Assembly (NCBI RefSeq): GCF_002608075.1
Contig: NZ_LAHA01000035.1
Location: 14,453-77,333 of the forward strand
Direction of reading: 5' to 3'
Source: Nostoc linckia z4
GTDB lineage: Bacteria; Cyanobacteriota; Cyanobacteriia; Cyanobacteriales; Nostocaceae
Length of the DNA stretch: 62,881 bases
A model generated the notes under the pieces. The model was not told where the DNA came from and did not search any database. It worked only from the letters and a program-made list of their open reading frames with translations. The translations under genes and the position numbers were made by a program. Of the stretch, positions 23,745 to 58,715 are shown piece by piece (the first letter of the stretch is position 1; each line of letters starts with the position of its first letter).

Positions 23745-24692
<948 letters not shown>

Positions 24693-24853: not shown

Positions 24854-26216
24854 ATGACTCCTCCAGAAAATCAAAACATCATCGAAGAAAGAAAAGAACT
24901 AATTAAGGAAGTACTAAGCGCTTATCCCGAAAAAGCAGCTAAAAAACGGGAAAAGCACCTAAACGTATACGAAGAAGGTAAGAGCGATTGCGGCGTTAAA
25001 TCTAACATCAAATCTCTTCCTGGTGTAATGACCGCTCGTGGTTGTGCTTACGCCGGTTCAAAAGGTGTGGTTTGGGGCCCTATTAAGGACATGATCCACA
25101 TCAGCCACGGGCCTGTAGGTTGCGGTTACTGGTCTTGGTCTGGTCGTCGTAACTACTACATTGGTACTACAGGTGTAGACACCTTTGGTACCATGCACTT
25201 CACCTCTGACTTCCAAGAACGGGATATCGTTTTCGGTGGTGACAAAAAACTCACCAAACTCATCCAAGAATTGGAAGTTCTTTTCCCTCTCAACCGTGGT
25301 GTTTCCATTCAATCTGAATGTCCCATCGGTCTAATCGGGGATGACATCGAAGCAGTAGCTCGGAACACATCCAAAGAAATTGGCAAGCCAGTTGTTCCCG
25401 TTCGTTGCGAAGGTTTCCGCGGTGTTTCTCAGTCCTTGGGTCACCACATCGCTAACGACATGGTGCGTGACTGGGTGTTCACCAGAGCCGACAAAGAGAA
25501 AAAAGAAGGCAAATTACAATTCGAGTCTACTCCTTACGACGTAGCAATCATCGGTGACTACAACATCGGTGGTGATGCTTGGGCTAGCCGGATTCTGTTA
25601 GAAGAACTGGGCTTGCGCGTAGTTGCTCAGTGGTCTGGTGATGGTACAATCAACGAAATGTTGATGACACCGAACGTGAAGATGAACTTGATTCACTGCT
25701 ACCGTTCGATGAACTACATCAGCCGTCACATGGAAGAAGCTTATGGTATACCCTGGTTGGAGTACAATTTCTTCGGCCCCACCAAGATTGCTGAATCCTT
25801 ACGGGAAATCGCTTCTAAATTTGACTCCAAGATCCAAGAAAACGCTGAGAAGATCATCGCTAAGTATCAGCCCACAATGGATGCGATCGTTAACAAGTAT
25901 CGCCCCCGTTTGGAAGGTAAGACCGTTGCGATGATGGTTGGTGGTTTGCGTCCTCGCCACGTTGTACCCGCTTTCCAAGATTTGGGTATGAAGATGGTCG
26001 GTACAGGTTATGAGTTCGCTCACAACGACGACTACAAACGTACCACCCACTACATCGAAAACGGCACCATCGTTTACGATGACGTAACTGCTTATGAATT
26101 CGAGGAATTTGTAAAAGCACTCAAGCCAGACTTAATTGCTTCTGGTGTGAAAGAGAAGTACGTCTTCCAAAAGATGGGTCTACCCTTCCGTCAAATGCAC
26201 TCCTGGGATTACTCCG
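24854..26216 (+). CDS. nifD: nitrogenase MoFe protein alpha chain NifD, 5' segment (interrupted by element)
   Basis: [31 protein letters not shown]. NifD similarity stops at the 11-bp repeat. The track ORF continues 31 unrelated codons to 26308. Confidence 0.95.
26206..26216 (+). repeat. left 11-bp recombination core GGATTACTCCG
   Basis: Identical to 58705-58715. Flanking bases differ on both sides. Confidence 0.9.
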
Positions 26217-26591
26217 AACCTAGCGATGCCTTCTCTTTCAGAGACGCTACCGCGAACGGCGGGCTTCGCCAACGCACTTACAAGTCAATTAAATCAATAT
26301 TTTTTTAGCTATCGGAGAAAAAAGAGCCTATTTCTAGCCTAAATCCAAATTACAAGCTTATTCATTAACAATCTGTTTTAATACTTCAGACAGTATAACT
26401 CTTATGTAATCTGGTTTTTAGATTTGAAAAGCATTTTGCTCCAAGAAAAACTGTTAAATAAAAGACTATTTTAGATGACGATTTTTTAGATTAAATGGCT
26501 AAATTTTTTTGTGTAGCACAAAGACGCAAATAAGAATGCAAAAATTCTGAATTTTTCTAAAGTGTAAGGTAATACTATATGCTGGTCTAAC

Positions 26592-26924
26592 TTAAACTCG
26601 CAATGCATCACGCATAAAAATCACTAATTTTGGAAGTGCCTGAAAAAATTCCTTTTCGTTATTGAATTGGTGAGTTTCAAGAAAGACATTGTTACTTGTA
26701 GATATTTCAATAATTTCCATTACACAAGCTCCTGACTCCCAAACTGTTACTCTACCAAGATGTAATAAACTCTCAAAATCAAGACACATAGCTGAATTAT
26801 CACTAGGTTGACAGTAGGTCAGCGTGTATTTCAGCTGATAAGCAGCAAAACGTGACTTTAATCCTGATTGAAATCTGTCAAAACCTCGTTCTGAGATTAG
26901 TTTTGTTAGTGGATTGATACTCAT
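26592..26924 (-). CDS. hypothetical protein
   Basis: 110-aa ORF with no recognisable motif. Confidence 0.45.
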   Translation of the reverse strand: MSINPLTKLISERGFDRFQSGLKSRFAAYQLKYTLTYCQPSDNSAMCLDFESLLHLGRVTVWESGACVMEIIEISTSNNVFLETHQFNNEKEFFQALPKLVIFMRDALRV

Positions 26925-27014
26925 TTATGATTATAGAAGTTTTCATTTGCTGTGACTATACATTAGTAGCTTCAAGTTAGAATATGATACTTTACACCAA
27001 TTTTTACTTTATCC

Positions 27015-27677
27015 ATGACAATTTTGATCGTAGAAACTCTATGCTCCGAAGCTGCTATATTTTCAGCAACCGAGTCTTTACATCCAGAACCTTTGCTATA
27101 TGGTGTGACTGATGGTAAGGCTGTCGGGACATACTTGGAACAAAAATTTAGACTTTATCTCAAACAGCGATATGAATTTGTAGAGGGTAATTCTGCAAGC
27201 AGTATTGACTTTCCAGGGTTACTTGTAGATGTGAAGGTAACAAGCATTCGACAACCACAATCATCATGTCCTTTCAAATCTGCACGTCAAAAGATATTTG
27301 GGCTTGGGTATTCGCTGCTGATTTTCGTCTACGATAAAACAGACAATAGTACGAACCGCACAGCAACCCTAAATATTTTGCATACTATTTATGTAAGCGC
27401 CGAAAGAACCGCAGATTTTCAGATGACTCGTGCAATTCGCAATATCATAGCAAACGAAGGTAATAAAGATGATTTAATTGCCTTCATGCTCGATCGCAAT
27501 TTACCCGTTGATGAAATTGAGGCAAGCAACATTGCCGATGAAATTATGAGCAATCCACCGGTACAGGGTTTTCTGACTATTTCCAACGCTTTGCAATGGC
27601 GACTCCAGTATGGAAGAGTAATAGAACGTGCTGGTCAAGAAGATGGTATAATTCCTGTTTACAAAATTAATCAATGA
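27015..27677 (+). CDS. probable type II restriction endonuclease
   Basis: 220 aa. PD-(D/E)xK-like IDFPGLLVDVKVTS. 4-nt ATGA overlap with the downstream methyltransferase. Confidence 0.55.
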   Translation: MTILIVETLCSEAAIFSATESLHPEPLLYGVTDGKAVGTYLEQKFRLYLKQRYEFVEGNSASSIDFPGLLVDVKVTSIRQPQSSCPFKSARQKIFGLGYSLLIFVYDKTDNSTNRTATLNILHTIYVSAERTADFQMTRAIRNIIANEGNKDDLIAFMLDRNLPVDEIEASNIADEIMSNPPVQGFLTISNALQWRLQYGRVIERAGQEDGIIPVYKINQ

Positions 27678-29116
27678 CTCATACTGCACATAAAACAAAG
27701 ATAGAGTACGGAGATTTCCAGACACCATTAGAATTAGCTAATAAAGTATGTAAAAAGCTAGTTGCACTCGGCATAACACCAGATATTATAGTTGAGCCAA
27801 CGTGTGGAGTTGGTAATTTTATTGAAGCAGCTTTAGATTCATTTCAATCAGTAAATAAAATTTTTGGAGTTGAAATCAATCCCGATTATTTAAATCAAGC
27901 TCAAACAAAAGCTAAATTTGTTAATCATAAAAGAATTGAAATTATATATGGAAATTTTTTTAAATTTGATTGGTCATCAATTATAGAAAAATCAAATCAT
28001 CAAATATTAGTAATTGGTAATTTACCTTGGGTAACAAACTCGCAGCAAGGTAGCATTGATGGAAAGAATTTACCAAATAAGAGTAATTTCCAAAACTATT
28101 CTGGTTTAGATGCAATTACAGGTAAGAGTAATTTTGATATATCTGAATGGATGTTAATTCAAGTTGTGCAATGGCTACAAAAGCGTGAAGGTTATCTAGC
28201 GATTTTATGTAAGAGTTCTGTTGCTAGGAAAATATTAACGTATATTAGTTCTCAAAAATTACATCTTGCTTACTGTGCAACTTACAAAATAGATACAAAA
28301 AAATATTTTGATGCTACTGTTGACGCGTGTTTACTGTTATGTAGATTTGAGTCAAATTCCAAAAATTATTTCTGTGATGTATTCAGTAGCCTTGAAACTT
28401 CTAATTATTATCGAATAGGTTATTGGAATAATGTACTTGTCAGAGATATTATTACATTTGAAAAACTACAAAATCTATACGATAAAAAATCAAAAATAAA
28501 ATGGCGCTCTGGTATTAAGCATGATTGCGCCAGTGTGATGGAGTTTCGCAAAATTAACAACACTCTGATTAATGGATTGGGAGAAGCTGTTGGTATTGAA
28601 GAAACATATCTGTTTCCTTTGCTTAAAGGTTCCTATGTTGCTCAAAATAAAACAAAGGTTACTGATAGATATGTTTTAGTAACTCAAAGATTTGTGGGTG
28701 AATCTATCGAACATATTAAAAATTACGCTCCTAAAACTTGGAACTATCTAGAAGCATATTCACAATACCTCGACAAAAGAAAAAGTAAGATTTATCAAAA
28801 TAACCCTCGATTTTCTATTTTTGGTGTAGGTTCGTATACTTTTGCACCTTGGAAAATTGCAATTTGTGGACTTTACAAAAAATTGGACTTTAGATTGATA
28901 GGTAAGATAGAAGAAAAACCTACTGTTTTTGATGATACAGTTTACTTTATTAGCTTTGATGATGAGAAAATTGCATATAAAACTTTTGAACTTTTGACTT
29001 CTTCAATAGCAAAAGAATTTTATTCGTCTCTAATTTTTTGGGATGAAAAGCGCCCAATCAAGTCTAGTATTTTAAATAAATTAAACTTGGCAGCTTTGGC
29101 AGAAGTATTAATTTGA
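27674..29116 (+). CDS. N6-adenine DNA methyltransferase
   Basis: 480 aa. SAM motif I EPTCGVGNFIEAA and motif IV-like VIGNLPWV. AT-rich gene. Confidence 0.75.
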   Translation: MTHTAHKTKIEYGDFQTPLELANKVCKKLVALGITPDIIVEPTCGVGNFIEAALDSFQSVNKIFGVEINPDYLNQAQTKAKFVNHKRIEIIYGNFFKFDWSSIIEKSNHQILVIGNLPWVTNSQQGSIDGKNLPNKSNFQNYSGLDAITGKSNFDISEWMLIQVVQWLQKREGYLAILCKSSVARKILTYISSQKLHLAYCATYKIDTKKYFDATVDACLLLCRFESNSKNYFCDVFSSLETSNYYRIGYWNNVLVRDIITFEKLQNLYDKKSKIKWRSGIKHDCASVMEFRKINNTLINGLGEAVGIEETYLFPLLKGSYVAQNKTKVTDRYVLVTQRFVGESIEHIKNYAPKTWNYLEAYSQYLDKRKSKIYQNNPRFSIFGVGSYTFAPWKIAICGLYKKLDFRLIGKIEEKPTVFDDTVYFISFDDEKIAYKTFELLTSSIAKEFYSSLIFWDEKRPIKSSILNKLNLAALAEVLI

Positions 29117-29240: not shown

Positions 29241-30779
29241 TCACTGCCCGTTAATCCGAATCAAGTCTGTCAAAATATTATCCAAACTGCCGTTAACTTG
29301 AATGCGATCGATTTTCTCTGCAATGCGTTCTAAAACTTCGAGTTCCTTGAGACGCAAAGCTACAGGGTTATCTTCCATCACTTTGGCAGTGTTTAACATA
29401 CTGCGGGTGGCGGCGGTTTCTTCTCTGCGTCTGACTACGTTTGCTTGAGCAGCTTTTTCGGCTTCGACTACTTTGCTCAAGATTGTCTTAATCTCGCCGG
29501 GTAAGATAATATCTTTGACGCCTACAGAATCTACTTCGATTCCATAGTCGGCGGTTTTTTGGCGGATATATTCAGATATGCTTGTGTCAATTGCACCTTT
29601 ATCTTCTAATAAGGCATCTAAGTTGCGTTCGCCGATCGCACCACGCAATGCAAATTGTAATTCTTTGTATAAGAAGCCGGCAATATCTGACAAGCCGCTT
29701 TTTGCTCTCAAGGGATCGAGGATGCGGAAGCCAGCTGTCAAATTTAACCGCAGAGGTACTTTATCCTTAGAAAGGATATCTTGACCTGATACTTCCATGT
29801 TTTGCAGTCTCAAGTCGATGGTTTCGGTTTGAAAGGAGCGTCCAAATAACCACCAAGCGTGTATACCTGGCGATCGCTGTCCTTGAAACTCTTGATTAAT
29901 ATACAGTAGTCCGGTGTGCTGTGCGGGTACTTGGCATGTATGCAAACAGTTGCGACTGAGCAATTTCACTTCTGCCGAACCTTCAACCAACTCAGCAACT
30001 AAGCGAGGCTCTAACTGAGCATCAGTGCTGATGTCGATAATTTCCACCTCAACACCTTGCCAAAACAGCTTGCGACTTGTGGGTGGTAAAATAGAAATCG
30101 CTTTACCTCGATACCGCACAATTGCAACTTGCCAATTCAGTAATTGTACTGTTTGGCAGTAAGCAGCAATAAAATCTGGATGTTTTTCAATTAGAACATC
30201 TTCTAGAGGAAAGTCTGGGTTAGGAACAATTCGGCTAAGAGTCCGTACTGTAACATCCCGATCCACTGACCAAAAAGCATATTCTCCAGGTTCTAGAGGT
30301 CGCACAAAATCATTTTGTACATACAGTAAACCAATCTCATACTCCGAAATTTGGAACTTTTTCACTCCATTCAAGCTGATTTTACGTAGTTGCTGCACAA
30401 AAGAACTAGGCAATTCTAAACTTTCTTCTAAGTTGAAGACATAAGATTCTACCTCAATAAAACCACGCCAAAAAGCTACCAATTGATTTGGTGCAACGCT
30501 TACCCAATTCTGGCCGTAGCGTACTAAAGCGGCTTGGTTGTATGCGGTTCTGATAATCAGTAAATGTTGTTGCAGTTCAGTCTGATGATTTCGCAACAAC
30601 AGCTCCAGGTTTTCAATTTGAGCTTGTGGCTGGTTGAGGTCATAAGTTTTTACTTGCCAATGACGACCAAAATAAGTATGTGTACCAGGCTGTAAAATTT
30701 TCTGGAAGTCGCTGCGGTGATATAAAATACCGATTTCGTTAGGTTTTATATAAAATGTTTTCCACATAGTAATTTGCAT
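29241..30779 (-). CDS. SPFH/band-7 (slipin-like) protein with triplicated N-terminal domain
   Basis: 512 aa. C-terminal SPFH core plus coiled coil (GIEVDSVGVKDIILPGEIKTILSKVVEAEKAAQANV). Three N-terminal repeats (EIGILYHRSDF, EIGLLYVQNDF, HTGLLYINQEF). Confidence 0.8.
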   Translation of the reverse strand: MQITMWKTFYIKPNEIGILYHRSDFQKILQPGTHTYFGRHWQVKTYDLNQPQAQIENLELLLRNHQTELQQHLLIIRTAYNQAALVRYGQNWVSVAPNQLVAFWRGFIEVESYVFNLEESLELPSSFVQQLRKISLNGVKKFQISEYEIGLLYVQNDFVRPLEPGEYAFWSVDRDVTVRTLSRIVPNPDFPLEDVLIEKHPDFIAAYCQTVQLLNWQVAIVRYRGKAISILPPTSRKLFWQGVEVEIIDISTDAQLEPRLVAELVEGSAEVKLLSRNCLHTCQVPAQHTGLLYINQEFQGQRSPGIHAWWLFGRSFQTETIDLRLQNMEVSGQDILSKDKVPLRLNLTAGFRILDPLRAKSGLSDIAGFLYKELQFALRGAIGERNLDALLEDKGAIDTSISEYIRQKTADYGIEVDSVGVKDIILPGEIKTILSKVVEAEKAAQANVVRRREETAATRSMLNTAKVMEDNPVALRLKELEVLERIAEKIDRIQVNGSLDNILTDLIRINGQ

Positions 30780-30916: not shown

Positions 30917-31287
30917 TACTCTGCCGGCGCAGGTGTTTATAGTTTGGGATGCGGGCAAAAGCTTCTCCAGAACTGGATTAAGATTGCTGTTAGTTTTAAT
31001 AGACGGCTCAAAGGCAATCTAGAAAAACAGAACCGCGCTCAAATATGCCGATCGCTTTGCCAATCTAGAATTTCCGAAGTCAAAGCAGATATAGGAAAAC
31101 GAAGGTACATACTCAAGTTGGGGAGAGATTACAGTTGCGCTGGCTCCTTTACTGTTACGAACACCTGCATGACAGAGTACAAAAAACAAAAAGTTTTTTC
31201 ACTGGGTTTTTTTGAATCGCCCAATACATCTAGCTGTGACACTGCCTTGTCCCTAACAAGGTGCCCGTACCCAGGGCAGGGGTTTTT
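30917..31287 (-). ncRNA. structured non-coding region, module B body (homologue of 32604-32968)
   Basis: Patchy but strong conservation with module A (41-nt block with 1 mismatch, 30950-30990 vs 32634-32674; 31094-31155 vs 32761-32821). Many local hairpins. No conserved ORF. Strand inferred from the tRNA orientation. Confidence 0.5.
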
Positions 31288-31363
31288 TGGCTGAAAGTAT
31301 AGGAATCGAACCTATAATGAATCGGCGATACACCGATCGCTCTACCAAATGAGCTAACTTTCA
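31288..31363 (-). tRNA. tRNA-like cloverleaf with encoded CCA but non-canonical anticodon loop (UGUAUCG)
   Basis: Manual fold: TGAAAGT/ACTTTCA acceptor, GCTC/GAGC D stem, ATCGG/CCGAT anticodon stem, ATAGG-TTCGATT-CCTAT T arm, G-CCA. G at position 33 and C at position 37, so probably non-decoding. Confidence 0.6.
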
Positions 31364-31411
31364 TGGTGAAATAGTTGGAAGCATTAAGCGGTATACGCTA
31401 TTACCAGAGGT

Positions 31412-43979: not shown

Positions 43980-44038
43980 TCAGCAGTCATCCGCCGATTA
44001 TATCAAGTCATGAATTTTAAATGAGAGAGGAATTAATC

Positions 44039-46597: not shown

Positions 46598-46599
46598 AT

Positions 46600-47475
46600 T
46601 TACTCCTTGGTTTTTAATGTTTCAATTACAGATAAAAGATCTTCAATGTCTGTTAGTAATGCGTTAATCCGTCCACTACTAGACCGACCCTCTACAAAAT
46701 CTTGAAATATGTTTTGAAAATCTCCCAGTGCTTGACTTGCATTTTCAAGTTCTGCGGCAGTGAGTTCTTGAGTTAATAGTTCTCTGCGAGTAGCTATCCA
46801 TGTATCTTCATCAGCGATGGGTGTGGGTTGGAGCAATGGGTTAATGACAAGTCTTAGTTCTTGTCTATCTTGAATTCCCTTTAAATCACCTTTAATTTGA
46901 GTACTCAGAACATTGAGTAACTCTTGCTGTGTCTTTAATTCAAGCATAATAGTCTGATTGCGTTTTTGCAGTTCTTCTTTAAGAGCGCCCCGAATCTTAG
47001 AACTGACGATTAGTTTTCCTATACCTTGAAAAACCTCTTTATTTTCTATTAAGTTGCTTTCTCGTAAGGTCTGACCTATTGTATTTAAATTATCTACTAC
47101 CCCTCCAATAGCAGTTTGTGTTCGCTCAGGAGCATCAGACCCAGCTAAGTCCTGTAGTAATTTAAAATACTTACTCAGCAAGCTGTTGTGTTTTTTGAGC
47201 CGATTAATTAAGTCAATTCTATTACTATCTGAATCTGAAAATTCATTGTAATCATCAGATGTTTGATTATTTTCTCTGTCTTGTAATAAAAGTTCTTCAG
47301 AGCTTTCGTCAATTCGAGTTACAACAGCTAGATCTAATAGTTGGTTGAGAGCTTTGGAATAATTAGTTCCTGCCTGTGCTAGTTTTTTATATTCGTCAGT
47401 GGAACGACAAGCACTCAAACAAGTTGTGGCTATTGCTACAGCAATTATTATTGGAAAGTGAATTTTATTTTTCAT
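46600..47475 (-). CDS. putative lipoprotein, helical
   Basis: 291 aa. Signal peptide plus lipobox (IAVAIATTCLSAC). Coiled-coil-like remainder. Confidence 0.6.
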   Translation of the reverse strand: MKNKIHFPIIIAVAIATTCLSACRSTDEYKKLAQAGTNYSKALNQLLDLAVVTRIDESSEELLLQDRENNQTSDDYNEFSDSDSNRIDLINRLKKHNSLLSKYFKLLQDLAGSDAPERTQTAIGGVVDNLNTIGQTLRESNLIENKEVFQGIGKLIVSSKIRGALKEELQKRNQTIMLELKTQQELLNVLSTQIKGDLKGIQDRQELRLVINPLLQPTPIADEDTWIATRRELLTQELTAAELENASQALGDFQNIFQDFVEGRSSSGRINALLTDIEDLLSVIETLKTKE

Positions 47476-47551
47476 CTATTGTTTTCAAAGTTGCCCAAAA
47501 ATTATCGCATCAAATGTAGTTTTTGATTGAAAAATAGTAAAATAGATTAAA

Positions 47552-49222
47552 TTATCCATTTTTTAAATTCAGAAAATTTTGTCGAATCCACAATCTAAAT
47601 ATGCGTTTTAAAAGCCACTTTGTTAAGGGTTTTCCAATAAATATCCGGACATTCAGCTTAATAAAACTCCATAACTTAGATAAACGAGAACCATTATTTT
47701 TCATATCAAGCGGTTCTAGCCTGTCATTGATTAGATCCACCAAAGATTCTAAACGGAAGCTTAACTGATTTACAATTTCTTGACGTGTTTCTATGTCAAC
47801 CTCTGCCATTAACCTTCGTAATTCTGCAAGTTGATCTCGTTTGATGGCGTCATTATCTTGTAGTTGTTCTCCTTCTGGTGAACGAGGTTTTGCTAATTGA
47901 CTTAACTCTTTTTTTGCTTCATCCCAAGTATTTAAATTTTTATCGTTAACCTTACAATTAACTATCCACTCAAGAGGTGGCATTTTATTAAGTTCAAGGT
48001 TGAGTAAATCTTGGAGTTGACTCTTTGCTTGAAGATTGGACAGTTCAAATTGAGTGCGTTCCCGACCAATGTTGTAATCATAAGCCCGGAATTTCTTTTC
48101 AAGAAATCCAGCAAAGGCTGAGAAGACATCGCCAATTAACTCAAAGTCATTAGCTGTAATGGAAAATACTGGAGCATCCATTTCTTCCATAATCCAATCT
48201 TGGAAGCGAGACTGGTGAAAAATTGAACTCAGCAATGCAATTCCTGTTACCAAGAGATCGTTATCTTTTTTGATAAAAGGATTTTCGGGTAATTGGCGTT
48301 GACCTGGTGCAATATAAAGGTAATATCTTTTATCAGATAAATCTTGATTTTGATCGATGCGATCCACGAGGAGTTTAGCCATACCAATAGGCTCATTTTC
48401 AAAAACTCCACCATCTGTGTACAGATACTCCTCATTACGATCGCGACGCTTACCAAATCCACCAAAACGTCGAATTTTCCGAAGTTTAAAAGCGAAGGGA
48501 AATGCACCAGATGATAGACCGGCTTCGCGTAACTCACTCCAGTTAGTATCTCTAAGTTTTTTCCATTCTATTGACTCGCGTCCTGTTCTTGGATCTCTTA
48601 TTGTCTCTCGATCTATTTCATCAAGCGTCACATTCCCAAATCCATCGCGACGAGCTAGACACACAAATTGATCCTTATAACGGGTATATGCAAACTTTAG
48701 TGTTCCTTCTTTTCGGCCTTCACGAGCGTAATCAGTTGTAAGAGGGAAAGTATAGCCAGACAAGTTGGACATAGCTATACCAACATAAATCTCAGACGCA
48801 GCAGCCGGATGCTTTTGGTTGATTTGAACACGATCTTGCAGATATTTATTCCCAATTTTTTCAACAACTGCTGTTTGTAAAAGTGAGTATTTTTGATCTT
48901 CTTTTTCAACTTTAATTAATTCCCGAATATCAACTTCATCAACCCATGCATTGTAGAGTGGATTATTATATGGTTTGCGTAAAGACTGGTCTGGACGAAA
49001 GGGTGCAGGCTGATCGCCACAAAGAAGATGTTGGACTAAAATACAAGCCGTCATCCCACCCGCCGAAGCACCTGTAATTACATCAATTTCAATGGGTTCT
49101 TCATGATTTTTTATATCTTCGTTATGTCTGGCGATCGCTTCCAAAATTTCATACATAACGCCAGCTTCATAACTGCCAAGTGATACTGCTCCACTGATAA
49201 CAACGGCAAGCTTTTTGGGCAT
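47552..49222 (-). CDS. patatin-like phospholipase with extended C-terminal domain
   Basis: 556 aa. Oxyanion-hole motif SGAVSLGSYEAG, nucleophile GASAG, catalytic Asp motif YTDGGVFENEP. Confidence 0.85.
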   Translation of the reverse strand: MPKKLAVVISGAVSLGSYEAGVMYEILEAIARHNEDIKNHEEPIEIDVITGASAGGMTACILVQHLLCGDQPAPFRPDQSLRKPYNNPLYNAWVDEVDIRELIKVEKEDQKYSLLQTAVVEKIGNKYLQDRVQINQKHPAAASEIYVGIAMSNLSGYTFPLTTDYAREGRKEGTLKFAYTRYKDQFVCLARRDGFGNVTLDEIDRETIRDPRTGRESIEWKKLRDTNWSELREAGLSSGAFPFAFKLRKIRRFGGFGKRRDRNEEYLYTDGGVFENEPIGMAKLLVDRIDQNQDLSDKRYYLYIAPGQRQLPENPFIKKDNDLLVTGIALLSSIFHQSRFQDWIMEEMDAPVFSITANDFELIGDVFSAFAGFLEKKFRAYDYNIGRERTQFELSNLQAKSQLQDLLNLELNKMPPLEWIVNCKVNDKNLNTWDEAKKELSQLAKPRSPEGEQLQDNDAIKRDQLAELRRLMAEVDIETRQEIVNQLSFRLESLVDLINDRLEPLDMKNNGSRLSKLWSFIKLNVRIFIGKPLTKWLLKRIFRLWIRQNFLNLKNG

Positions 49223-49751: not shown

Positions 49752-50549
49752 TTACAAATGATTTTTAAACAATTCTAAAACATGTTGCCAAGCATCAGGA
49801 GCAGCTTCAGGATTGTAACTTGGATGTTGTTCCATAAATGGGTACTTATCTTTGAAAAATCCGGCGAAAAATCCGTGCCCGGCATCGTATCTAAATACAC
49901 GATGATTGATTTGATGTTTTTTTAATTCTGCTTCAATTTGTTCAGTTTCCTCCTGAGAAATAAATGTATCTCTTGTACCGAAAAAGGCATAAATAGTACC
50001 TTGAATTTGTGAAGTGCGATTAATAGTTGGAGTTTCTTCACCATAACTAGAAGTGGTAATTCCAGCACCGTAAAACGAAGCTGTAGCTTTGATATCCGGG
50101 AAAGTTGCAGCGATGTAAGCAACATGACCGCCAAAACAAAAACCAACGACACCAATGGCATCATGTTTAACATTGGGTAAAGTTTTTAAGTAGGCGATCG
50201 CCGCTTGAATATCACTTAAGATATCTTGATACTTTACTTGTTGATAGTATTCCAATCCCAGCCGATAGGCTTCTGGACTAAATCCAACATCTTCAGCACT
50301 AAGATCCGCTGCAAAACCAGGAGCAATCCGTTGATACATCGCGGGAGCTATTACTACATAACCTTGTTTAGCAATTAATTCAGTGATGTCTCGAATGTTA
50401 TTATTGATGCCAAAAATTTCTGGAAAAACGATAACGGCGGCAAAGGTTCCTTCATGTGCTGGTTGAGCTAAGTAAGCATCAATTTCTAAGTTATTGTTAG
50501 GTATTTTGACTTTTGCGGTGTTAATTTCGATGTTTGTGATTTCTACCAT
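49752..50549 (-). CDS. dienelactone hydrolase family protein
   Basis: 265 aa. Nucleophile elbow GFCFGG and C-terminal His (YDAGHGF). Confidence 0.8.
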   Translation of the reverse strand: MVEITNIEINTAKVKIPNNNLEIDAYLAQPAHEGTFAAVIVFPEIFGINNNIRDITELIAKQGYVVIAPAMYQRIAPGFAADLSAEDVGFSPEAYRLGLEYYQQVKYQDILSDIQAAIAYLKTLPNVKHDAIGVVGFCFGGHVAYIAATFPDIKATASFYGAGITTSSYGEETPTINRTSQIQGTIYAFFGTRDTFISQEETEQIEAELKKHQINHRVFRYDAGHGFFAGFFKDKYPFMEQHPSYNPEAAPDAWQHVLELFKNHL

Positions 50550-50948
50550 CTTTTTTCAGGTTATTTGATACCAACTTTTCTATTTTGGCTGTTTTTTGAC
50601 ACGGATGATAAACTGGCATTGCATTTAAGTCAGAAATGTTTTGGTGTTGATTGTTGACTGATGACGGTTGACTGTTGACAGTATGAGTGAGTGTATAATT
50701 TAAAAGTTTAATAATCTGCAACAAGCTAATTTTTTCCGTTTACACAGCAACCACAAGCTAGACGGTCGTATGATAAATCACACAACCAAGGCATGAAAAT
50801 ATTTATTTCTCAGTCAACAGTCAACATTGAATTTATAACTTTTGAATAGACAACATCTCGAACTTCTGGATGATACTAAGGGTTTTTGATTTGTGCGACC
50901 TTACAAAGGTAAGCATAAAGACTCAATATTAAGAAGCACAAAAAAACT

Positions 50949-51488
50949 ATGCCAGATCAAACATTTAGAGCAAACATACCAGAAGTTGACCCAACGGAGA
51001 TTGAAGATACTCGAACTGCCATCGCTGACGAACATCGTTCATTTTTAGAAAAAGTCATGGTGAAAGGTGGGTTTGCAGACATCTATGACGCCAGAGACTT
51101 TACCGAAGTTGTGTTTCGCGTCATGCGTGATTTGATGACAACAGAAGCAAGCGATCGCGTCGAGGGAGAACTGCATAAAGAAGCCGTATCTACCGATGAA
51201 AAAGCACTCCAGTTTGATATTGCCGATCTTTGGAAAGATACCAATCCAATTGTGGGATTTTTAAGCCGAGTTCGTCCACCCTGGCAAGGCCCTGGAATTT
51301 TCAAAATCGATTCCGATCGCTTTTTGTTCCGAGTTGCTAATGAAGGGGGCAAACCAGAAACAGTTGACCGAGAACAGGCAGTAAAAGCCGTATTTTCTGC
51401 CACCAAAGACGAACTTTCCCAAGAAAGAATTGAAGAAATTGCTAGTTGGCTACCTGACTATGTACGTCAGCTTTGGCAACAAGCTTAA
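50949..51488 (+). CDS. hypothetical protein (DUF2267-like?)
   Basis: 179-aa ORF with a clean start. Family assignment from memory only. Confidence 0.5.
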   Translation: MPDQTFRANIPEVDPTEIEDTRTAIADEHRSFLEKVMVKGGFADIYDARDFTEVVFRVMRDLMTTEASDRVEGELHKEAVSTDEKALQFDIADLWKDTNPIVGFLSRVRPPWQGPGIFKIDSDRFLFRVANEGGKPETVDREQAVKAVFSATKDELSQERIEEIASWLPDYVRQLWQQA

Positions 51489-51555
51489 TTACAAGTGTGA
51501 AAAAGTCAAGCCTGTTTGCAGTTGACGATAATTGCAAGCAGACTTTTTATATAAA

Positions 51556-51924
51556 TCACTCCGCAGACTTCACCGTTTGATTTGCCACCAAGCGTGGTTT
51601 CTTTCGTTCTGACTTACGCGTTCCACCAGCCATACCATATTCATCACTATTTTTGCCATAGCGAGACGCAACACTCAGCAGCATGTGTTCAGAATAATCA
51701 TTCAACACACGTTCAGCTTCTTCTAATGCATTCTGCGTTTTATCTATCATCGTTCGTGCTTGATTATGGGCGGCTAGCTTTTCTCGCAAATCCTGAATCA
51801 TAGTATTGTAACTAGTTATTGATAACCCATTACCAAAATCTAAGTCAGGCTTAATCGCCTGCATTCCTTCAACCCGTCGTTCAGCTTTCGTCAGTGCAAC
51901 TGAGTTTCGTCTGCGTTGCGGCAT
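51556..51924 (-). CDS. hypothetical coiled-coil protein (paralogue of 36699-37124)
   Basis: 122 aa. Colinear similarity to the 141-aa protein. Also preceded by a tandem repeat array. Confidence 0.65.
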   Translation of the reverse strand: MPQRRRNSVALTKAERRVEGMQAIKPDLDFGNGLSITSYNTMIQDLREKLAAHNQARTMIDKTQNALEEAERVLNDYSEHMLLSVASRYGKNSDEYGMAGGTRKSERKKPRLVANQTVKSAE

Positions 51925-52120
51925 AAAGTTTTCCTTTTTGGATTAATTTATAAAGAACGCTAATGTTCCTTGACACTGAGTTCTTTATATACCACTAAAT
52001 TACGCAATTAGCAGATGCACCAGCCTGAGTAAAGCTACATAATTTATAGAACATTCACAATACAGCATAAATACGGTTATATTTGCTGAAATTTTTGAAT
52101 ATTAAGGGATTTACGACTTG

Positions 52121-52294
52121 AAAACTTGATTTAGAAGTCCAAAACTTGATTTAGAAGTTCAAAACTTGATTTAGAAGTCCAAAACTTGATTTAGAAGTTC
52201 AAAACTTGATTTACAAGTCCAAAACTTGATTTACAAGTCCAAAACTTGATTTACAAGTCCAAAACTTGATTTACAAGTCCAAAACTTGATTTAC
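52121..52294. repeat. tandem repeat, 20-bp unit x ~8.7 (AAAACTTGATTTAGAAGTCC / ...TTACAAGTCC)
   Basis: Exact 20-bp periodicity. The first four units are of G type (alternating C/T at one position), the next four of C type. Confidence 0.92.
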
Positions 52295-52349
52295 CAGCAA
52301 GCTGTTGCACAGCACAGCCTAAATTAGGGATGCGATCGCGCTTATTTTC

Positions 52350-52685
52350 TCAGGCTACGCCATATTGCGTATATTGGCGCAAGTGTGATGGCTGTAGTCC
52401 TAAAACAATATCCTCTCTGGGTACTCCCATTTCAGTCAACTCTTGGGCAATTTGGATATCAGTCATATTACGCTGAATCCATATTTTTTCATCTTTAATA
52501 TCGAGATGTATCACACAATTATAAATGCGATCGTATCCATACCAGCCAATCTCTAAAATCTGGTAATGGTCTCGCGCTGTATCGAATATCAGTTGAATTT
52601 CAACATCTTCCTCTGAAGGTTGGTAACTGCTATATTTAGTTAATAACTTTTGAATATATTCACGATATTGGTCTAGCTTTGCCAT
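52350..52685 (-). CDS. xisI: XisI family protein
   Basis: 111 aa. Characteristic YREYIQKLL...DTARDHYQILEIGW...IHLDIKDEKIWIQ. Confidence 0.82.
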   Translation of the reverse strand: MAKLDQYREYIQKLLTKYSSYQPSEEDVEIQLIFDTARDHYQILEIGWYGYDRIYNCVIHLDIKDEKIWIQRNMTDIQIAQELTEMGVPREDIVLGLQPSHLRQYTQYGVA

Positions 52686-53089
52686 TGCACAATCACCTCA
52701 TCATTTGGATCGTAAACTATTAATTTAACTTGATATTCTTGTACTGAACTTTGGGCAAAGTCCCGGCTAAATAGCGATCTATACGTTGACAGTGGAACTG
52801 CTAGGAACAAAACTCTCTCAGGTTCTCTGAGTCGCAAAGCTAATCGATAATTGAGAAACTGCCCCAAAGCCGCATGGTAGTCAAAAAGTTCTGAATCCCC
52901 TAAAAAACTTTTGATTTCAACAGCAATTTTCTCTGTTCCTCGCTCAGCTGCTAAGATTTGTTCCGCACCTAAATCGATTGACATTTTATCTTTGCCAAAC
53001 TTAACCACTAGCGGATCGTGCGTAATAATCCACCCTTCTTTTTCTAGTCCCCGTTTAACGGCTTCATGAAAAATGTCTTTTGCAGACAC
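52673..53089 (-). CDS. xisH: XisH family protein
   Basis: 138 aa. Characteristic MSAKDIFHEAVKRGLEKEGWIITHDPL...AVEIKSF. Overlaps xisI by 13 nt. Confidence 0.82.
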   Translation of the reverse strand: MSAKDIFHEAVKRGLEKEGWIITHDPLVVKFGKDKMSIDLGAEQILAAERGTEKIAVEIKSFLGDSELFDYHAALGQFLNYRLALRLREPERVLFLAVPLSTYRSLFSRDFAQSSVQEYQVKLIVYDPNDEVIVQWQS

Positions 53090-53309: not shown

Positions 53310-54332
53310 TCATTCCAAAACTGTAGATGATGAGGATTTAGATACTTGAGTCATTTGATACTCGATCTGCGTAATTGCAGACATTATACTGTATTCATGC
53401 CCTTCTAATAGAGCATTTTTAATCTCTCTAACTTGCTCTAGGAGAGCTTTTCTAAGATATGGCTTTTGTTTAGATACGTAAGAATGATGACTCCAAATAT
53501 CAGAACCAATGATAAGAAATCCTGCTATCCAACCAGCAGCACACTTCGCTGCAAATGATGTTATTGCCTTGCCTAATCCTGCTTTAAGAGCAGTTTTACA
53601 GCCTAACTTCGCTAAAATTTTAGTGGCTTGTTTGCCGACATAAGCAATAAATTCTGTAGAAGATAATGTCATTTTCATGCCATATACTGCGCCTGTTATT
53701 GCCATGTCCTTTCCCCCCTTTTCAATCCAATATGCGATGTTACTAAACTGATAAATAATTCCCCCTTTTTCATAAGTTATCTTGCTGAGTTCCATGCTTA
53801 ATTCCTGAAACTCAACATTAGAAAGTTCATACTTGCATTGAATTTCCATAAAACCTTTTGCTAGTTCTACTGCATAAACATCAACCGTCTGTGTGAGTAT
53901 ATTCTGCATTTTTCTTTCCATCTGAGTAGGTGATAAAATATATACTTCAATCTTTTGTGCAACTTCTGTCTGTAGTGACTCTTTAGAAATAAGAGACATT
54001 AGACCTATTTTCTTTTGATAAAAATAATCAAAATATTCTTCCATGAAAACTTCTATATTTGGTTGCAGAGATTGAATCCACTCTTCTAAATGCTTATCTG
54101 CAAAGTCCTTGGCTTTAATTTTTGATTTCTCAAAAACAGCTAAAATTTCTTCAAGGAATTTCTCGCGGCTAAAATGTCTGTTAACTCTGTGCTTTTTATT
54201 TGAACCGCCAGGATTGTCTGACAAACTATATCGAGCAGTAAACAAGTAGATAAAGCACCAAAATATCAATAACATGGCTGTACCATAGCCTAGTACACTG
54301 CCGAAGGAATCAAGAAAATGGGAAAGCATCAC
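53310..54332 (-). CDS. hypothetical membrane protein
   Basis: 340 aa. N-terminal TM (GYGTAMLLIFWCFIYLF) and C-proximal hydrophobic segment (CAAGWIAGFLIIG). AT-rich. Confidence 0.55.
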   Translation of the reverse strand: MMLSHFLDSFGSVLGYGTAMLLIFWCFIYLFTARYSLSDNPGGSNKKHRVNRHFSREKFLEEILAVFEKSKIKAKDFADKHLEEWIQSLQPNIEVFMEEYFDYFYQKKIGLMSLISKESLQTEVAQKIEVYILSPTQMERKMQNILTQTVDVYAVELAKGFMEIQCKYELSNVEFQELSMELSKITYEKGGIIYQFSNIAYWIEKGGKDMAITGAVYGMKMTLSSTEFIAYVGKQATKILAKLGCKTALKAGLGKAITSFAAKCAAGWIAGFLIIGSDIWSHHSYVSKQKPYLRKALLEQVREIKNALLEGHEYSIMSAITQIEYQMTQVSKSSSSTVLE

Positions 54333-54527
54333 TTACTCGTAATGAATTACGCAGATAGCTTACCAAAACACTGATTTCGGAAGTTTCGGGAGAAAGGTAG
54401 TCCGCACTCAACTACTCCTACAAGGATTTCCAGACCTCAAGAACAAAAAATCCTTAGGTTCTCATGAGGTTTTTTCGTAAATTTTTTGTAAATTTTTTAT
54501 AAATTTTTATTAAAAATGGGGGCTAGG

Positions 54528-56225
54528 TTAATCTTGAAGGAAACGTAACAAGTCTGAATTTTGTAAAAAGTAACTAAAACTAGGATGATATAACCTATAG
54601 TGCAACTTTCCGTCCACTTCTTGTTTATATAGAAACTGTTTCCACTCCTCTAGTATTAACTGAAGTTCATATTGAGATTCAAATAAAGAAACCATATCAG
54701 TGAAAGATATTAGGCTAACATGACCTGAACTAGCATTAGCTAACTTACGAAGAAGCCGCTTGTGTCTGATATCACTTTTGTGATTAATATTCATACGGCG
54801 TAAATGACTCTCGTAATACCCTCTCAAACCTTCTGGAAGATTATCAAGACTATCCAAGTTTTTATAAACGCCTCGCTCAATATCTACTAATACATTTTTT
54901 AAATACCTAAAGTTTCTTTGACTTTTAAGTGTAAGAGTTTCAATAAGTTTTTCTTCACTTTCAAAAAGTCTTTCTTCACTACATGTTTTATCATCTTGTG
55001 AAGTGCGAAGCTTTTCTCTTCTGTCTAAATACTTTTTGATATATGTTCTACAATCTTCCTTCCATGTGTCACCAATAAGGCAGCTAATATCTTCTATCAT
55101 TAAAGGCACTTCAATTTCTAAGAAAATATTTTTTGGACGCTGAGACATAAAGAAAAAAATACCTTCTGGAAGATATTCCGGCAATTTTAGTATATTTTCT
55201 GACTCGTTGCTTAAATATACTTCGTCCAAAGCATCTATGACAATAACTAACTGTGACTTGTGCTTATGTAAAACTTTTTTACTTATCTCCTCAAGTAAAC
55301 TATTAAGTAGCGAAATATCAACATTTTCTAACTTTTCTTTAAAATGTCTTAGTTGATCATAATATTTATGATATAATTGGTTACAAATACTTTCTAGAAA
55401 ATCATAAATCTGGTTAAGTCCTTGGGGTTGCTGTACAAAAAAACAGGGACATTTATTTTCTAATACATACTTAGCTAGTATTGCTGTTTTTCCAACTCCA
55501 GGATCGCCCTGCAATATAAAATATCCTTGTGAATGATCTTTTTGAAATTTTTTAAATCTCTCAATAATATCTTTTCTTTCAATAAAATCTTCTGGATCTG
55601 TATGGTACTTAATTAAAGTCTGAAATTCTAAAGGAGGTTCAAATATATTGCTATTAATAAAGGAATTTGAATTGCCAAAAAATTCATTTTCATAACGTTC
55701 TTTTAGGGATTTAATAGTTTCATCGTTACTTTCGCTGATAACAATATTGTTGACAGTAAATCTCCAATCTTTAGACCCCTGCCTTGTAGATTTATGGCGA
55801 TCATCTTTTAGAAGTTTGTGTTCATCTGCATCCTTTATTACGTCTCCAAGTGATTTAATTACAGTTTCCTTTTGAAAATCGTTGGATATATCAGGATAAT
55901 TTTTACAAAAATCCTGTGATTCTTGTGAGCATATTGAATTTTTTACATACGAATTAACTAGATTTTCTAAATTTTTTAGAGTGCAACAAACTTCAATAGT
56001 TTTATTCCTTATATCATCACTAATGTTTCCCTTGAAATCCGGATATGGTTTATTTTCATCCTCACCTTGATTGCGAATGTAGTCTTTTAATGCCATAATA
56101 AGTAAAATAGCCCGTTGCATTTTTTTGTTACTAATTTTTCTGTCTTCTTTCGATGCGTTCATATTTGATAATATATATAAATAAGAGTTTGCACATTTTT
56201 TAGGTAAGTATATATAAATATACAT
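54528..56225 (-). CDS. STAND/NACHT-like P-loop NTPase with unknown N-terminal domain
   Basis: Walker A GDPGVGKTAILAKY, Walker B LVIVIDALDEV. Likely start at Met 56162 (MNASKEDRK). AT-rich, no HIP1 seen by eye. Confidence 0.7.
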   Translation of the reverse strand: MYIYIYLPKKCANSYLYILSNMNASKEDRKISNKKMQRAILLIMALKDYIRNQGEDENKPYPDFKGNISDDIRNKTIEVCCTLKNLENLVNSYVKNSICSQESQDFCKNYPDISNDFQKETVIKSLGDVIKDADEHKLLKDDRHKSTRQGSKDWRFTVNNIVISESNDETIKSLKERYENEFFGNSNSFINSNIFEPPLEFQTLIKYHTDPEDFIERKDIIERFKKFQKDHSQGYFILQGDPGVGKTAILAKYVLENKCPCFFVQQPQGLNQIYDFLESICNQLYHKYYDQLRHFKEKLENVDISLLNSLLEEISKKVLHKHKSQLVIVIDALDEVYLSNESENILKLPEYLPEGIFFFMSQRPKNIFLEIEVPLMIEDISCLIGDTWKEDCRTYIKKYLDRREKLRTSQDDKTCSEERLFESEEKLIETLTLKSQRNFRYLKNVLVDIERGVYKNLDSLDNLPEGLRGYYESHLRRMNINHKSDIRHKRLLRKLANASSGHVSLISFTDMVSLFESQYELQLILEEWKQFLYKQEVDGKLHYRLYHPSFSYFLQNSDLLRFLQD

Positions 56226-56873: not shown

Positions 56874-57049
56874 ATAATTATTGCTTTTATAGAGTTTTTT
56901 GCTTAACAGTTGAATTTAATAAATCTAAAATTTAGATACACTTAGCTCGAATATCTAACAAAGTGGAAACCTATACAGATGAGTTACTATAAGCTTATAT
57001 TAGTAGTAAATTTGACAATTGAACACACTACACAAAATTTTTTAACAAT

Positions 57050-58351
57050 TCAACTTCGCTTATAAACGATTTCCATTTTCAACTTCTCAACCTCTAATCT
57101 CAACTTTTCATTTTCCATTCTCAATTTAGCATTTTCTTCCCTAATTAACTCAACTTCATTCCTCTTACTCAACGCCTGATTCATTGCTAACTTTCGCATA
57201 TCTAGCGAAAACCATCGCTGATAAGTTTGCGTGTGAACTTGGACGCTATGACCTAGATTATCTGCTGCTGCTTTAATTGGAATTCCTAAAATATGCGCTC
57301 GAATTGCCCAAGCGTGGCGTAAATCATAAGGCTTAAAATCTAAGCCGATTTTACGAAACCACCAACTGACTCGTTGTGTTAATGCCGTGATTTCTGCATA
57401 ATTAGTATTATCTTTTTTACTAATTGCCGTTGCCAGCATTTCTAAATATTTGGGATTCCTTAAATCAAATTCCTCAATCCATTGTTTATATAAAGGTAAA
57501 GCTTCTCTCTCGCCAGTCTTACAATCTTTATGAACCTTCCAGGTTAAATCCAAATTTTCTTGACTTAACCACCAATCGATGTCAGGATTAATAAAAAGCT
57601 CGCGCGGTCGTAAACCGAAAACTGCTAACATTCCATAAGTCCAGCGCCAAAGCTGCCAGCTATCTTGGACATTTTGGTTAACTTGATTGCCTCTGGTATT
57701 TAAGTATTGTTCAAACTTGCCAATCCCCTCAGCTATTTCTGCATCAGTCGGTATATTGCGGGAATTATTCTCTGGCATTTTGGAGTATTTTGATAAATCG
57801 ATTTCGATTTTGAACGTCTGACAAAATACAGCGATCGCTCTTGCTGCATTATACTTAGACCATTCCTTATCGATTCTTTCAATCGCATTTATCAAATTCT
57901 CAGAAGTCGCCAAATCAGCAGGATTAGTAAATCGCTTAGTTCGGGAAATATAATAAAAAAAAGTATGTTCGCTTTTAGTCGTCCGTTTGTGAGTTTTAAA
58001 ATATTCATCTTCAAATTTTTCCAGCAATTCGCCAATTGTTTTACAATCTTTTTTAATTGCCTCATTGCCTAAATATTTTTCATTCCATGCAAAAGTTTTA
58101 CGAGCAATTAACTTTCCTAACTCATAAGCTTCTTCCTCAGCCGTTTTTAACCCATCCAAATTAGCAGGAATATTCAAGCTGAGATTGTATTGCTTTCTAC
58201 CAGTGCCATTTTTATCCTTGTCCCCAGGTTTAATCGGTAACGTAGCGCGTAATTGCAGACTTCCATTAGATTCTCGAATTGTTACCTTAGTCTTTGCAGA
58301 CTTCAAACGCAGATTTACCGTCTCTAATTCCAGTAATACTTTTGATTTCAT
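57050..58351 (-). CDS. xisA: nifD-element site-specific tyrosine recombinase XisA
   Basis: 433 aa. Integrase motifs RPRELF, YDLRHAWAIRA, LGHSVQVHTQTYQRW. N-terminus (NGSLQLRATLP) resembles Anabaena XisA. Located at the inner right border of the element. Confidence 0.9.
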   Translation of the reverse strand: MKSKVLLELETVNLRLKSAKTKVTIRESNGSLQLRATLPIKPGDKDKNGTGRKQYNLSLNIPANLDGLKTAEEEAYELGKLIARKTFAWNEKYLGNEAIKKDCKTIGELLEKFEDEYFKTHKRTTKSEHTFFYYISRTKRFTNPADLATSENLINAIERIDKEWSKYNAARAIAVFCQTFKIEIDLSKYSKMPENNSRNIPTDAEIAEGIGKFEQYLNTRGNQVNQNVQDSWQLWRWTYGMLAVFGLRPRELFINPDIDWWLSQENLDLTWKVHKDCKTGEREALPLYKQWIEEFDLRNPKYLEMLATAISKKDNTNYAEITALTQRVSWWFRKIGLDFKPYDLRHAWAIRAHILGIPIKAAADNLGHSVQVHTQTYQRWFSLDMRKLAMNQALSKRNEVELIREENAKLRMENEKLRLEVEKLKMEIVYKRS

Positions 58352-58704
58352 GTGTTCTGTTTACAGCTTTGCAGACTTGAAGCGAAATAATTCGTAATTT
58401 AAGACTCTTGATTGCGGGCATTGCTGAATTCTTACTCTCTGCGACTCTCTCTTGAAAAGTTCAGATGCCTGCGGCAAGCCCCTTCGGGTCTACGCCGGAA
58501 GCCGGCGCTCCGACTTTTCGCTGCGTCTGTGCGTGAGTAAACTCATATTTTAAATCAGCAACACATAATTACAAATTACGAACTACGAATTCTCCTTTAG
58601 CCTATATTTAGTCTAAAAATAAATGCGTTCTCAACGAACAATGTTTAATTCTGACATTGCTCATTGCAAACATTAACCCCTCTAAAAAAATAAAAGCATT
58701 AAAA

Positions 58705-58715
58705 GGATTACTCCG
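58705..58715 (+). repeat. right 11-bp recombination core GGATTACTCCG
   Basis: Identical to 26206-26216. Confidence 0.9.

Follow-up and report, generated by a model that had tools for sequence, protein, structure and literature searches.

The nifD gene of Nostoc linckia is split by a 32,499-bp insertion that is very probably a classical XisA-type nifD element of heterocyst-forming cyanobacteria. The insertion lies in a 62,881-nt stretch of contig NZ_LAHA01000035.1, hereafter the window, from the first base of which all window coordinates are counted. The assignment is based on sequence: the repeats at the borders of the element, the reading frame restored by their recombination, the orthology and motifs of the XisA recombinase, the conservation of the core and of the inner border across about 80 species, and recombination products seen in relatives. 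By analogy with work on PCC 7120 and Anabaena variabilis, we infer that the window strain itself excises the element, that it does so specifically in heterocysts and that xisA is under NtcA-type control.

The genes of the nif cluster occur in the order nifB, fdxN, nifS, nifU, a small open reading frame (ORF), nifH, nifD′, the element, ′nifD, nifK, a further small ORF and nifE. The features that define the split gene and its surroundings are the following.

18304–19749: nifB, with an end-to-end model match
19928–20317: fdxN, with both Cys clusters present
23799–24692, plus strand: nifH, first gene of the interrupted nifHDK operon (TIGR01287, 468.8 bits, model positions 1–273 of 275)
24854–26216, plus strand: 5′ part of nifD, codons 1–454 and the first base of codon 455, with the left core at its end
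26206–26216, plus strand: left 11-bp core, GGATTACTCCG, nifD nt 1353–1363
26217–58715: nifD element, 32,499 bp with one core copy counted
58705–58715, plus strand: right 11-bp core, GGATTACTCCG
58716–58855, plus strand: 3′ part of nifD, completing codon 455, followed by 45 codons and a stop
59138–60673, plus strand: nifK (TIGR01286, 908 bits, model positions 1–516 of 516)

The core GGATTACTCCG occurs exactly twice in the whole window, and a search allowing one mismatch adds no further copy. The bases beside the two copies differ (G versus A on the 5′ side, A versus G on the 3′ side), and the exact repeat is therefore 11 bp long. Joining 24854–26216 to 58716–58855 yields 1,503 nt, that is, 500 codons and a stop, with no internal stop codon. 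The joined NifD spans the NCBIfam nifD model TIGR01282 end to end (model positions 1–466 of 466, 875 bits) and aligns without a break across the junction to the α-chain of a solved molybdenum–iron (MoFe) protein structure (9hbc_A). By contrast, the unjoined ORF (24854–26308) encodes 484 residues, of which the first 454 are NifD codons and the last 30 are unrelated sense codons, followed by a stop. The original prediction, made from the window sequence alone, had proposed that nifD is split by an XisA-type element bounded by exact 11-bp direct repeats and that the joined gene measures 1,503 nt; both proposals were reproduced. It had also described NifD similarity continuing through the left core into unrelated codons, which is correct, but it counted 31 of these where there are 30 and a stop. 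Because nifB, nifH and nifK match their models end to end, nifD is the sole interrupted gene of those checked; fdxN, predicted to be intact, is indeed one continuous ORF. The guanine-plus-cytosine (GC) content of the element is 0.377, compared with about 0.44 in the nif flanks. For annotation, this means that the 484-residue ‘NifD’ in the database (WP_244918148.1) would be the truncated vegetative-cell form, the functional protein being the 500-residue fusion.

A GC-rich short repeat resembling a miniature inverted-repeat transposable element (MITE) is dispersed at 26230–26290, 34217–34252 and 58430–58545, and the copy at the left border is the source of the 30 unrelated codons at the end of the truncated NifD.

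Recurrence of the core is by itself weak evidence, since 9 of 100 shuffled sequences also give two 11-mer matches at no more than one mismatch. The second copy, however, lies exactly where NifD resumes in frame, for which the chance is about 2.4e-7 for one given position. Judged from the sequences, the position of the core at both break points of the protein, together with its conservation in relatives, is not a matter of chance.

The recombinase gene, xisA, is situated at the inner right (nifK-proximal) border, as predicted. The features of the two borders are listed below.

26217–26335, plus strand: left inner border, with a conserved AACCTAGCGAT beside the core, a conserved TTTTTTAGC...GAGAAAAAAGAG block and a GC-rich short repeat between them
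57050–58351, minus strand: xisA, encoding a tyrosine site-specific recombinase of 433 residues, 353 bp inside the nifK-proximal border and reading away from it
58352–58704, minus strand: xisA upstream region and right inner border, of which the 120 bp beside the core (58585–58704) are conserved across about 80 species
58658–58672, 58642–58656 and 58626–58640: three adjacent TGT-N9-ACA-like sites upstream of xisA
about 58430–58545: MITE-like GC-rich insert within the xisA upstream region

XisA of the window is 100% identical to an integrase of N. linckia z18. Over its full length it shares 85% identity with ABA23533 (Ava_3928), which Hilton et al. (PMC4874684) list as the recombinase for the nifD element of A. 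variabilis. Orthologues, named XisA in several NIES genomes, are 85–95% identical over 100% of its length and carry the Pfam domains XisAC_N and XisAC_2nd; the window protein also matches the PHROG integrase family phrog_1 over residues 21–398 (2.5e-10). In an alignment of 23 XisA sequences, the motifs G-L-R248-P-R-E (box I), Y342-D-L-R345-H346 (box II), G367-H368 and Y377 are invariant. Box II, G367-H368 and the tyrosine nucleophile Y377 align to 4a8e, an XerC-like recombinase of solved structure, and the box II region of this protein was the only match in a PDB profile search with the XisA alignment.

Upstream of xisA, three adjacent TGT-N9-ACA motifs are kept in the consensus of about 80 loci, and the same stretch of about 120 bp contains a duplicated TAGGCTAAA. 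We take these motifs to be putative NtcA/VF1 sites of the kind described for PCC 7120. This upstream region measures 236 bp in most species; in the window it is 353 bp long because of the MITE-like insert, which adds about 115 bp. Some XisA forms, 472 residues in length, are annotated with an N-terminal extension of 39 codons; for the window protein such an extension is ruled out by this insert.

To place the element among its relatives, XisA was used to scan one genome per species, giving 80 loci (designated by L numbers) from Nostoc, Desmonostoc, Calothrix, Tolypothrix, Scytonema, Fischerella, Chlorogloeopsis and other genera. In every one of these loci whose contig reaches the border, xisA lies 213–541 bp from the core beside ′nifD–nifK. 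The comparison with related nifD elements that the original prediction had called for thus shows an identical 11-mer adjoining xisA in 76 of the 80 genomes, the remaining four retaining TACTCCG, and the roughly 120 bp of inner right border are conserved throughout the set. The features of the left border come from an anchored comparison with the 11 loci that show both element ends. In these 11, both ends lie within the fetched DNA and the elements measure 6.4–11.6 kb; for C. fritschii PCC 6912 the computed 7,899 bp agrees exactly with the literature value of 7.899 kb, so that the sizing method is validated. Apparent second cores in L021 and L069 were chance TACTCCG matches without nifD flanks and were discarded.

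Products of the expected recombination are found in relatives. An exact-sequence look-up in a protein collection returned the 500-residue fused NifD itself, encoded in a nifH–nifD–nifK arrangement on a 4.5-kb Joint Genome Institute (JGI) metagenome contig, Ga0314816_1000573 (L170, sample 3300031481). This contig matches window positions 23660–26216 at 98.6% and 58705–58990 at 99.65%, and the two matches overlap by exactly the 11 core bases. A near-identical Nostoc therefore carries the precise predicted excision product; differing from the window by 1–2.5%, it is another clone. A homologue search with the fused NifD listed only relatives of at most 87% identity, the nearest Nostoc entries being truncated ORFs. 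The reciprocal product may be represented in L059 (positions 1–330), a scaffold of a metagenome-assembled genome (MAG) of the lichen-associated Nostoc sp. DedSLP03, which contains, in order, the chromosomal right junction, a gap, the inner-left border, the core, the inner-right border and xisA. As read from the sequence, this arrangement is the junction of an excised circle. The contigs of L011 (position 1) and L076 (position 45) break at the core or within 45 nt of it. A sample in which excised and unexcised DNA coexist would be expected to give such breaks, and L059, L011 and L076 resemble the traces that a mixture of this kind leaves in an assembly.

These data fit the following scheme. In the DNA of vegetative cells, nifD would be split after nt 1363, leaving nifH–nifD′ 32.5 kb from ′nifD–nifK; only the truncated NifD (454 residues followed by 30 unrelated ones) could be made, and nifK would be severed from the nifH promoter. 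The element brings its own recombinase gene, placed at the nifK-proximal end and transcribed away from the border, with the regulatory region separating it from the recombination site. At a late stage of heterocyst differentiation, XisA would carry out conservative site-specific recombination between the two cores, which are direct repeats. The element would be released as a 32,499-bp circle carrying xisA and all cargo, and one core copy would remain in the restored 1,503-nt nifD, allowing nifHDK to be transcribed from the nifH promoter.

Several points temper this scheme. The AlphaFold model of XisA is too low in confidence to bear on the fold (mean predicted local distance difference test (pLDDT) 47, predicted template modelling score (pTM) 0.27), its 23-sequence input alignment being shallow and too uniform. 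Only one of the three sites upstream of xisA in the window is a perfect TGT-N9-ACA, the other two having one mismatch each, and the MITE-like insert in the same region could alter regulation. The source of the L170 contig may be heterocysts or else a sister strain that lacks the element, as A. variabilis FSR does (PMC8461463).

The slightly degenerate sites and the insert would also suit a fossil insertion, that is, an element that no longer excises, with nifD a pseudogene and nitrogen fixation lost or carried out by another nitrogenase. The state of the locus makes this extremely unlikely. The cores are identical, neither part of nifD is damaged and both are highly conserved, xisA has kept its full length and its catalytic motifs and is as close to its orthologues as given above, and the same proteins are retained in several N. 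linckia strains. A second, intact nifD elsewhere, which the original prediction had named as the finding that would make this a dead locus, is not expected from the literature: two N. linckia strains, z1 and NIES-25, have neither nif2 nor vnf (PMC8461463), so that nifD1 is the only α-subunit gene. It is also conceivable that the insertion is a general integrative element for which nifD is a mere attachment site, that excision is stochastic or stress-induced and that the fused copies come from element-free strains. Such strains do exist (A. variabilis FSR; PMC8461463), L170 is not the same clone as the window, and the cargo turns over fast between relatives. Against this stand the block upstream of xisA, kept with its three TGT-N9-ACA-like sites across about 80 species, and the cargo, which includes no phage or conjugation machinery except a lone TraX. 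In orthologous elements, moreover, excision has been demonstrated to be specific to heterocysts (Golden 1985; Golden and Wiest 1988, cited in PMC4874684 and PMC11249958). We therefore consider a general integrative element very unlikely and retain the developmentally excised nifD element as the explanation.

In kind and size, the split nifD is already known, and the element itself is already tabulated. Developmental rearrangement of this sort has been known since 1985 and is catalogued in dozens of genomes, to which the present case adds a further instance. Hilton et al. 2016 (PMC4874684) list 34 nifD elements in four variants. The core in the window starts at nifD nt 1353, as in their ‘nifD 1353–1357’ variant (Table B), the repeats of which range from TACTCCG to GGATTACTCCGG and the sizes of which are 7.9, 11.1, 14.2, 18.4, 23.4, 35.2 and >328 kb; published nifD elements as a whole range from 4 kb to >328 kb. 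Pratte & Thiel 2021 (Microb Genom 7:000595, PMC8461463, Table 2) give a nifD element of 32 500 bp for N. linckia z1, with no fdxN or hupL element listed, and map others in NIES-25 (31,130 bp), Moss3 (32,989 bp) and 2RC (58,153 bp). The z1 element is from the same species and is the same size as the 32,499 bp found here, no fdxN element is reported for z1 and fdxN is intact in the window, and the accessions of the window XisA, SPFH protein and reverse transcriptase (RT; the last two are described below) are common to N. linckia z18 and z1. No difference between the two elements is detectable, and any would be at most at strain level.

Among the known counterparts are the nifD elements of PCC 7120 and A. 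variabilis ATCC 29413 (Golden 1985, Lammers 1986). They have the same GGATTACTCCG core at the same insertion point (nifD nt 1353), a likewise nifK-proximal xisA in opposite orientation to nifD, and a conserved block of putative regulator sites upstream of xisA. The original prediction had given the core as that of PCC 7120, which agrees with the 11-bp core reported by Golden et al. 1985 in the form quoted in PMC11249958. It had also put the window element at about three times the size of its PCC 7120 counterpart, and 32.5 kb compares with 11.3 kb (11.1–11.3 kb across PCC 7120 and ATCC 29413). Unlike these two, the window element has no detected cytochrome P450 gene (cyp110), and it adds a restriction–modification (R-M) pair, a module of RT, tRNA and SPFH genes, a STAND NTPase, a patatin block, a PstS-like protein and others. 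A sister element outside the species is that of Nostoc sp. DSM 114161, of about 25–26 kb as reconstructed from L171 and L081 with an unseen gap of about 4 kb. Its XisA is 94% identical, and its gene order is that of the window (xisA, xisH, xisI, DUF2267, dienelactone hydrolase (DLH), methyltransferase, periplasmic-binding protein (PBP)/DUF4912 and histidine kinase, then TraX, Alr1449, tRNAs, RT, SPFH, DNA methyltransferase (MTase) and NspV), but it is without the insertion of the STAND NTPase and a 340-residue ORF and without the patatin block. The hupL (XisC) and fdxN (XisF, XisH and XisI) elements of PCC 7120 follow the same principle: the element interrupts a heterocyst gene, is excised during development and encodes its own recombinase at one of its ends. 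XisA and XisC are paralogues (Pfam XisAC families), and homologues of XisH and XisI are encoded in the window element; the target genes and cores are different, however, XisF is a serine recombinase, and neither xisF nor xisC is present in the window.

The element carries 27 ORFs, which cover 75% of its length. A backbone common to many of the 80 loci is made up of xisA, a 90-residue ORF, xisH/xisI, a 122-residue ORF, the DUF2267 and dienelactone hydrolase genes, an S-adenosylmethionine (SAM) methyltransferase gene, a sensor kinase gene, a 141-residue ORF and an Alr1449-family gene, in the same order as in elements of 10–11 kb such as L005 and L008. The remaining 20 kb or so are insertions: the STAND NTPase and 340-residue ORF, the patatin block, the PstS-like/DUF4912 protein, the RTX protein, DUF6653 and TraX and, in the interval from the Alr1449 gene to the left border, the RT module, the SPFH gene, the NspV-like R-M pair and the TriTu immunity protein. 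From left to right, the genes outside the RT module are as follows.

26592–26924, minus strand: TriTu immunity-protein family, 110 residues, just inside the left border (Pfam PF24689, 8e-24)
27015–27677, plus strand: NspV-like type II restriction endonuclease (PADLOC REase_II, 1.2e-132; the L081 orthologue has Pfam NspV)
27674–29116, plus strand: type II DNA methyltransferase, its start overlapping the endonuclease stop (PADLOC MTase_II, 1.2e-238)
33541–34233, minus strand: Alr1449-family hypothetical protein, backbone and among its commonest genes (tblastn matches in 25 of 80 loci; orthologues with Pfam PF27270)
34876–35526: TraX
35714–36223: DUF6653 protein
36699–37124: hypothetical protein, 141 residues
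37198–38385: RTX-repeat protein
38696–40909, plus strand: sensor histidine kinase (dCache-HAMP-HisKA-HATPase), backbone (23 of 80 loci)
41520–43979, plus strand: PstS-like PBP with DUF4912, also in Nostoc sp. DSM 114161
within 41520–45488, plus strand: hypothetical protein, 179 residues, also in Nostoc sp. DSM 114161
44841–45488, plus strand: SAM methyltransferase, also in Nostoc sp. DSM 114161
45675–49222, minus strand: patatin block, hypothetical proteins of 128, 127 and 291 residues and a patatin-like phospholipase of 556 residues (2 of 80 loci)
49752–50549: dienelactone hydrolase, backbone (43 of 80 loci)
50949–51488: DUF2267 protein, backbone (43 of 80 loci)
within 49752–51924: hypothetical protein, 122 residues, backbone
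52350–52685, minus strand: xisI, backbone (Pfam XisI, 3.8e-45)
52673–53089, minus strand: xisH, backbone (Pfam XisH, 1.1e-55)
53310–56225, minus strand: hypothetical protein of 340 residues and STAND NTPase of 565 residues with an N-terminal EAD4 domain, between xisA and xisH/xisI

The Alr1449-family gene is probably Ava_3922/Npun_F0406, reported as common to all elements (PMC8461463). Homologues of xisH/xisI are present in about 17–23 of the 80 loci, that is, in about a quarter of related nifD elements; they occur in the nifD element here although the window has neither an fdxN element nor xisF. The STAND NTPase and the 340-residue ORF have a counterpart in none of the 80 loci, their insertion has a GC content of 0.31–0.35, and the 340-residue protein has no family match. 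The two were considered as an EAD4 effector pair, which was rejected because the 340-residue protein has no similarity to EAD4. A prophage origin was likewise rejected, as a PHROGs search of the hypothetical cargo proteins yielded no phage structural or replication genes. The published description of the z1 cargo says only that it holds no genes of known function (PMC8461463). This is no longer accurate: large Nostoc nifD elements consist of a backbone of about 10 kb and insertions of defence-type genes.

Several repeats accompany the cargo. Inverted repeats of 58 nt (38564–38621 and 41245–41302) flank the sensor kinase gene, which suggests that this gene arrived as a separate insertion. A 62-nt tandem repeat in five copies occupies an intergenic stretch of the element (36264–36573), and about ten copies of a 20-nt tandem repeat (52068–52333) adjoin xisI.

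The part of the cargo between the R-M pair and the Alr1449-family gene is a module in which an RT gene lies between two non-coding units and is followed by an SPFH gene.

29241–30779, minus strand: SPFH/Band_7 (slipin-like) protein, 512 residues (Pfam PF01145, 5e-29)
30918–31487, minus strand: non-coding unit B, with a leader, tRNA-Ile(TAT) at 31288–31363 and a structured non-coding RNA (ncRNA) at 30918–31178 with a long-range closing helix
31534–32586, minus strand: retron-type RT, 350 residues, YADD intact (Pfam RVT_1, 1.7e-23)
32603–33244, minus strand: non-coding unit A, with a leader, tRNA-Met(CAT) at 33046–33121 and 32969–33044, and an ncRNA at 32603–32880

Each unit is about 0.6 kb long and comprises a 118-nt leader, one or two tRNA genes and a structured RNA of about 265–290 nt. 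Unit A is a diverged copy of unit B, and its ncRNA ends 17 nt before the RT start codon. The best PADLOC match of the RT is RT_XIII (9.6e-150, 498 bits; next model, 306 bits), and on its sequence the protein belongs to retron clade 10. Homologues of this short RT occur in Nostoc sp. DSM 114161, Nostoc sp. C052, another Nostoc, Oscillatoria nigro-viridis PCC 7112, Scytonema millei and Cyanosarcina radialis, and in each homologous locus (L081, L082, L083, L165, L167 and L169) an SPFH protein of 508–529 residues is encoded 0.7–0.9 kb downstream of the RT. The RT–SPFH spacer contains tRNA-Ile(TAT) in all eight loci with the spacer available, the window included, sometimes together with tRNA-Tyr or tRNA-Met, and is 70–94% conserved, even between orders.

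Eleven copies of the ncRNA share a common fold with a 14-bp long-range closing helix and 94% of cells paired. In this fold, which was derived from the same alignment, 14 pairs show compensatory changes, a number that 1 of 500 shuffles attained; the covariation score, subject to the same circularity, is 0.226, compared with at most 0.089 for slid controls. Rfam searches at gathering and at permissive thresholds identified only the tRNAs and no family for the ncRNA units.

The closest described systems for this cargo are the type XIII retrons (Mestre et al. 2020, NAR 48:12632): the RT matches the RT_XIII model, and a predicted structured ncRNA lies beside it. In the canonical locus L084, WH-SWIM (cluster 114) and HEAT/ARM (cluster 216) proteins adjoin an RT of 469 residues, whereas neither lies beside the RT in the window, L081, L082, L083, L165, L167 or L169, and the window RT is about 120 residues shorter at its N terminus. 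Conversely, the window module has an SPFH partner and tRNA genes before each ncRNA copy, and L084 has neither. The SPFH protein has no PADLOC model, Mestre et al. mention neither SPFH nor tRNA, and full-text literature searches for retrons with SPFH, stomatin or slipin returned nothing relevant. A metagenome scan with an alignment of the short-RT subgroup gave 80 loci of 35–62% identity, none with an SPFH neighbour or the tRNA arrangement.

We flag the module, without claiming a function for it, as possibly an undescribed retron variant. Put in full, our tentative suggestion, which we hold at somewhat less than even chance, is that the cargo includes an undescribed retron-like system distributed from Nostoc to Oscillatoria, Scytonema and Cyanosarcina, with a clade-10 (type XIII-like) RT, a structured ncRNA of about 270 nt closed by a long-range helix, a cytoplasmic SPFH protein replacing SWIM/HEAT and tRNA genes immediately upstream of the ncRNA copies, with tRNA-Ile(UAU) in every case and frequently tRNA-Met(CAU) as well. 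In a Nostoc subclade, the module rides in the nifD element alongside the type II R-M pair, the STAND NTPase and the patatin block. If the suggestion is true, the nifD element would be a small defence island in function, one that heterocysts lose from their chromosome. The module would merit a study of its own.

The three tRNA genes of the element (one Ile-TAT and two Met-CAT) have encoded CCA ends and lie on DNA that would leave the heterocyst chromosome. A tRNA-Ile with a UAU anticodon is unusual in bacteria. The AUA share of Ile codons is 24–33% in the RT, R-M, STAND and patatin genes, compared with 0–6% in the nif genes. Pairs of tRNA-Met(CAT) genes are also found in the nifD elements of L004, L006 and L061.

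Outside the nif cluster, the interval between a crp-family gene and nifB holds a CRISPR array (15410–16836; Rfam CRISPR-DR5) with 20 repeats, each 37 nt long. The window contains no cas gene, and comparison of the spacers with the rest of the window gave only chance matches of 11–12 nt. Further upstream, a PIN-domain gene (9719–10174) precedes the gene for a 1,244-residue protein with a two-partner-secretion (TPS) domain (10794–14528), which is made of tandem repeats of 189–195 nt. The region at 2651–9448 is a probable natural-product cluster: it encodes a PhyH-family dioxygenase, a 745-residue protein with a weak squalene-hopene cyclase C-terminal match and a class II lanthipeptide synthetase (LanM; DUF4135 and LANC_like, 1,122 residues).

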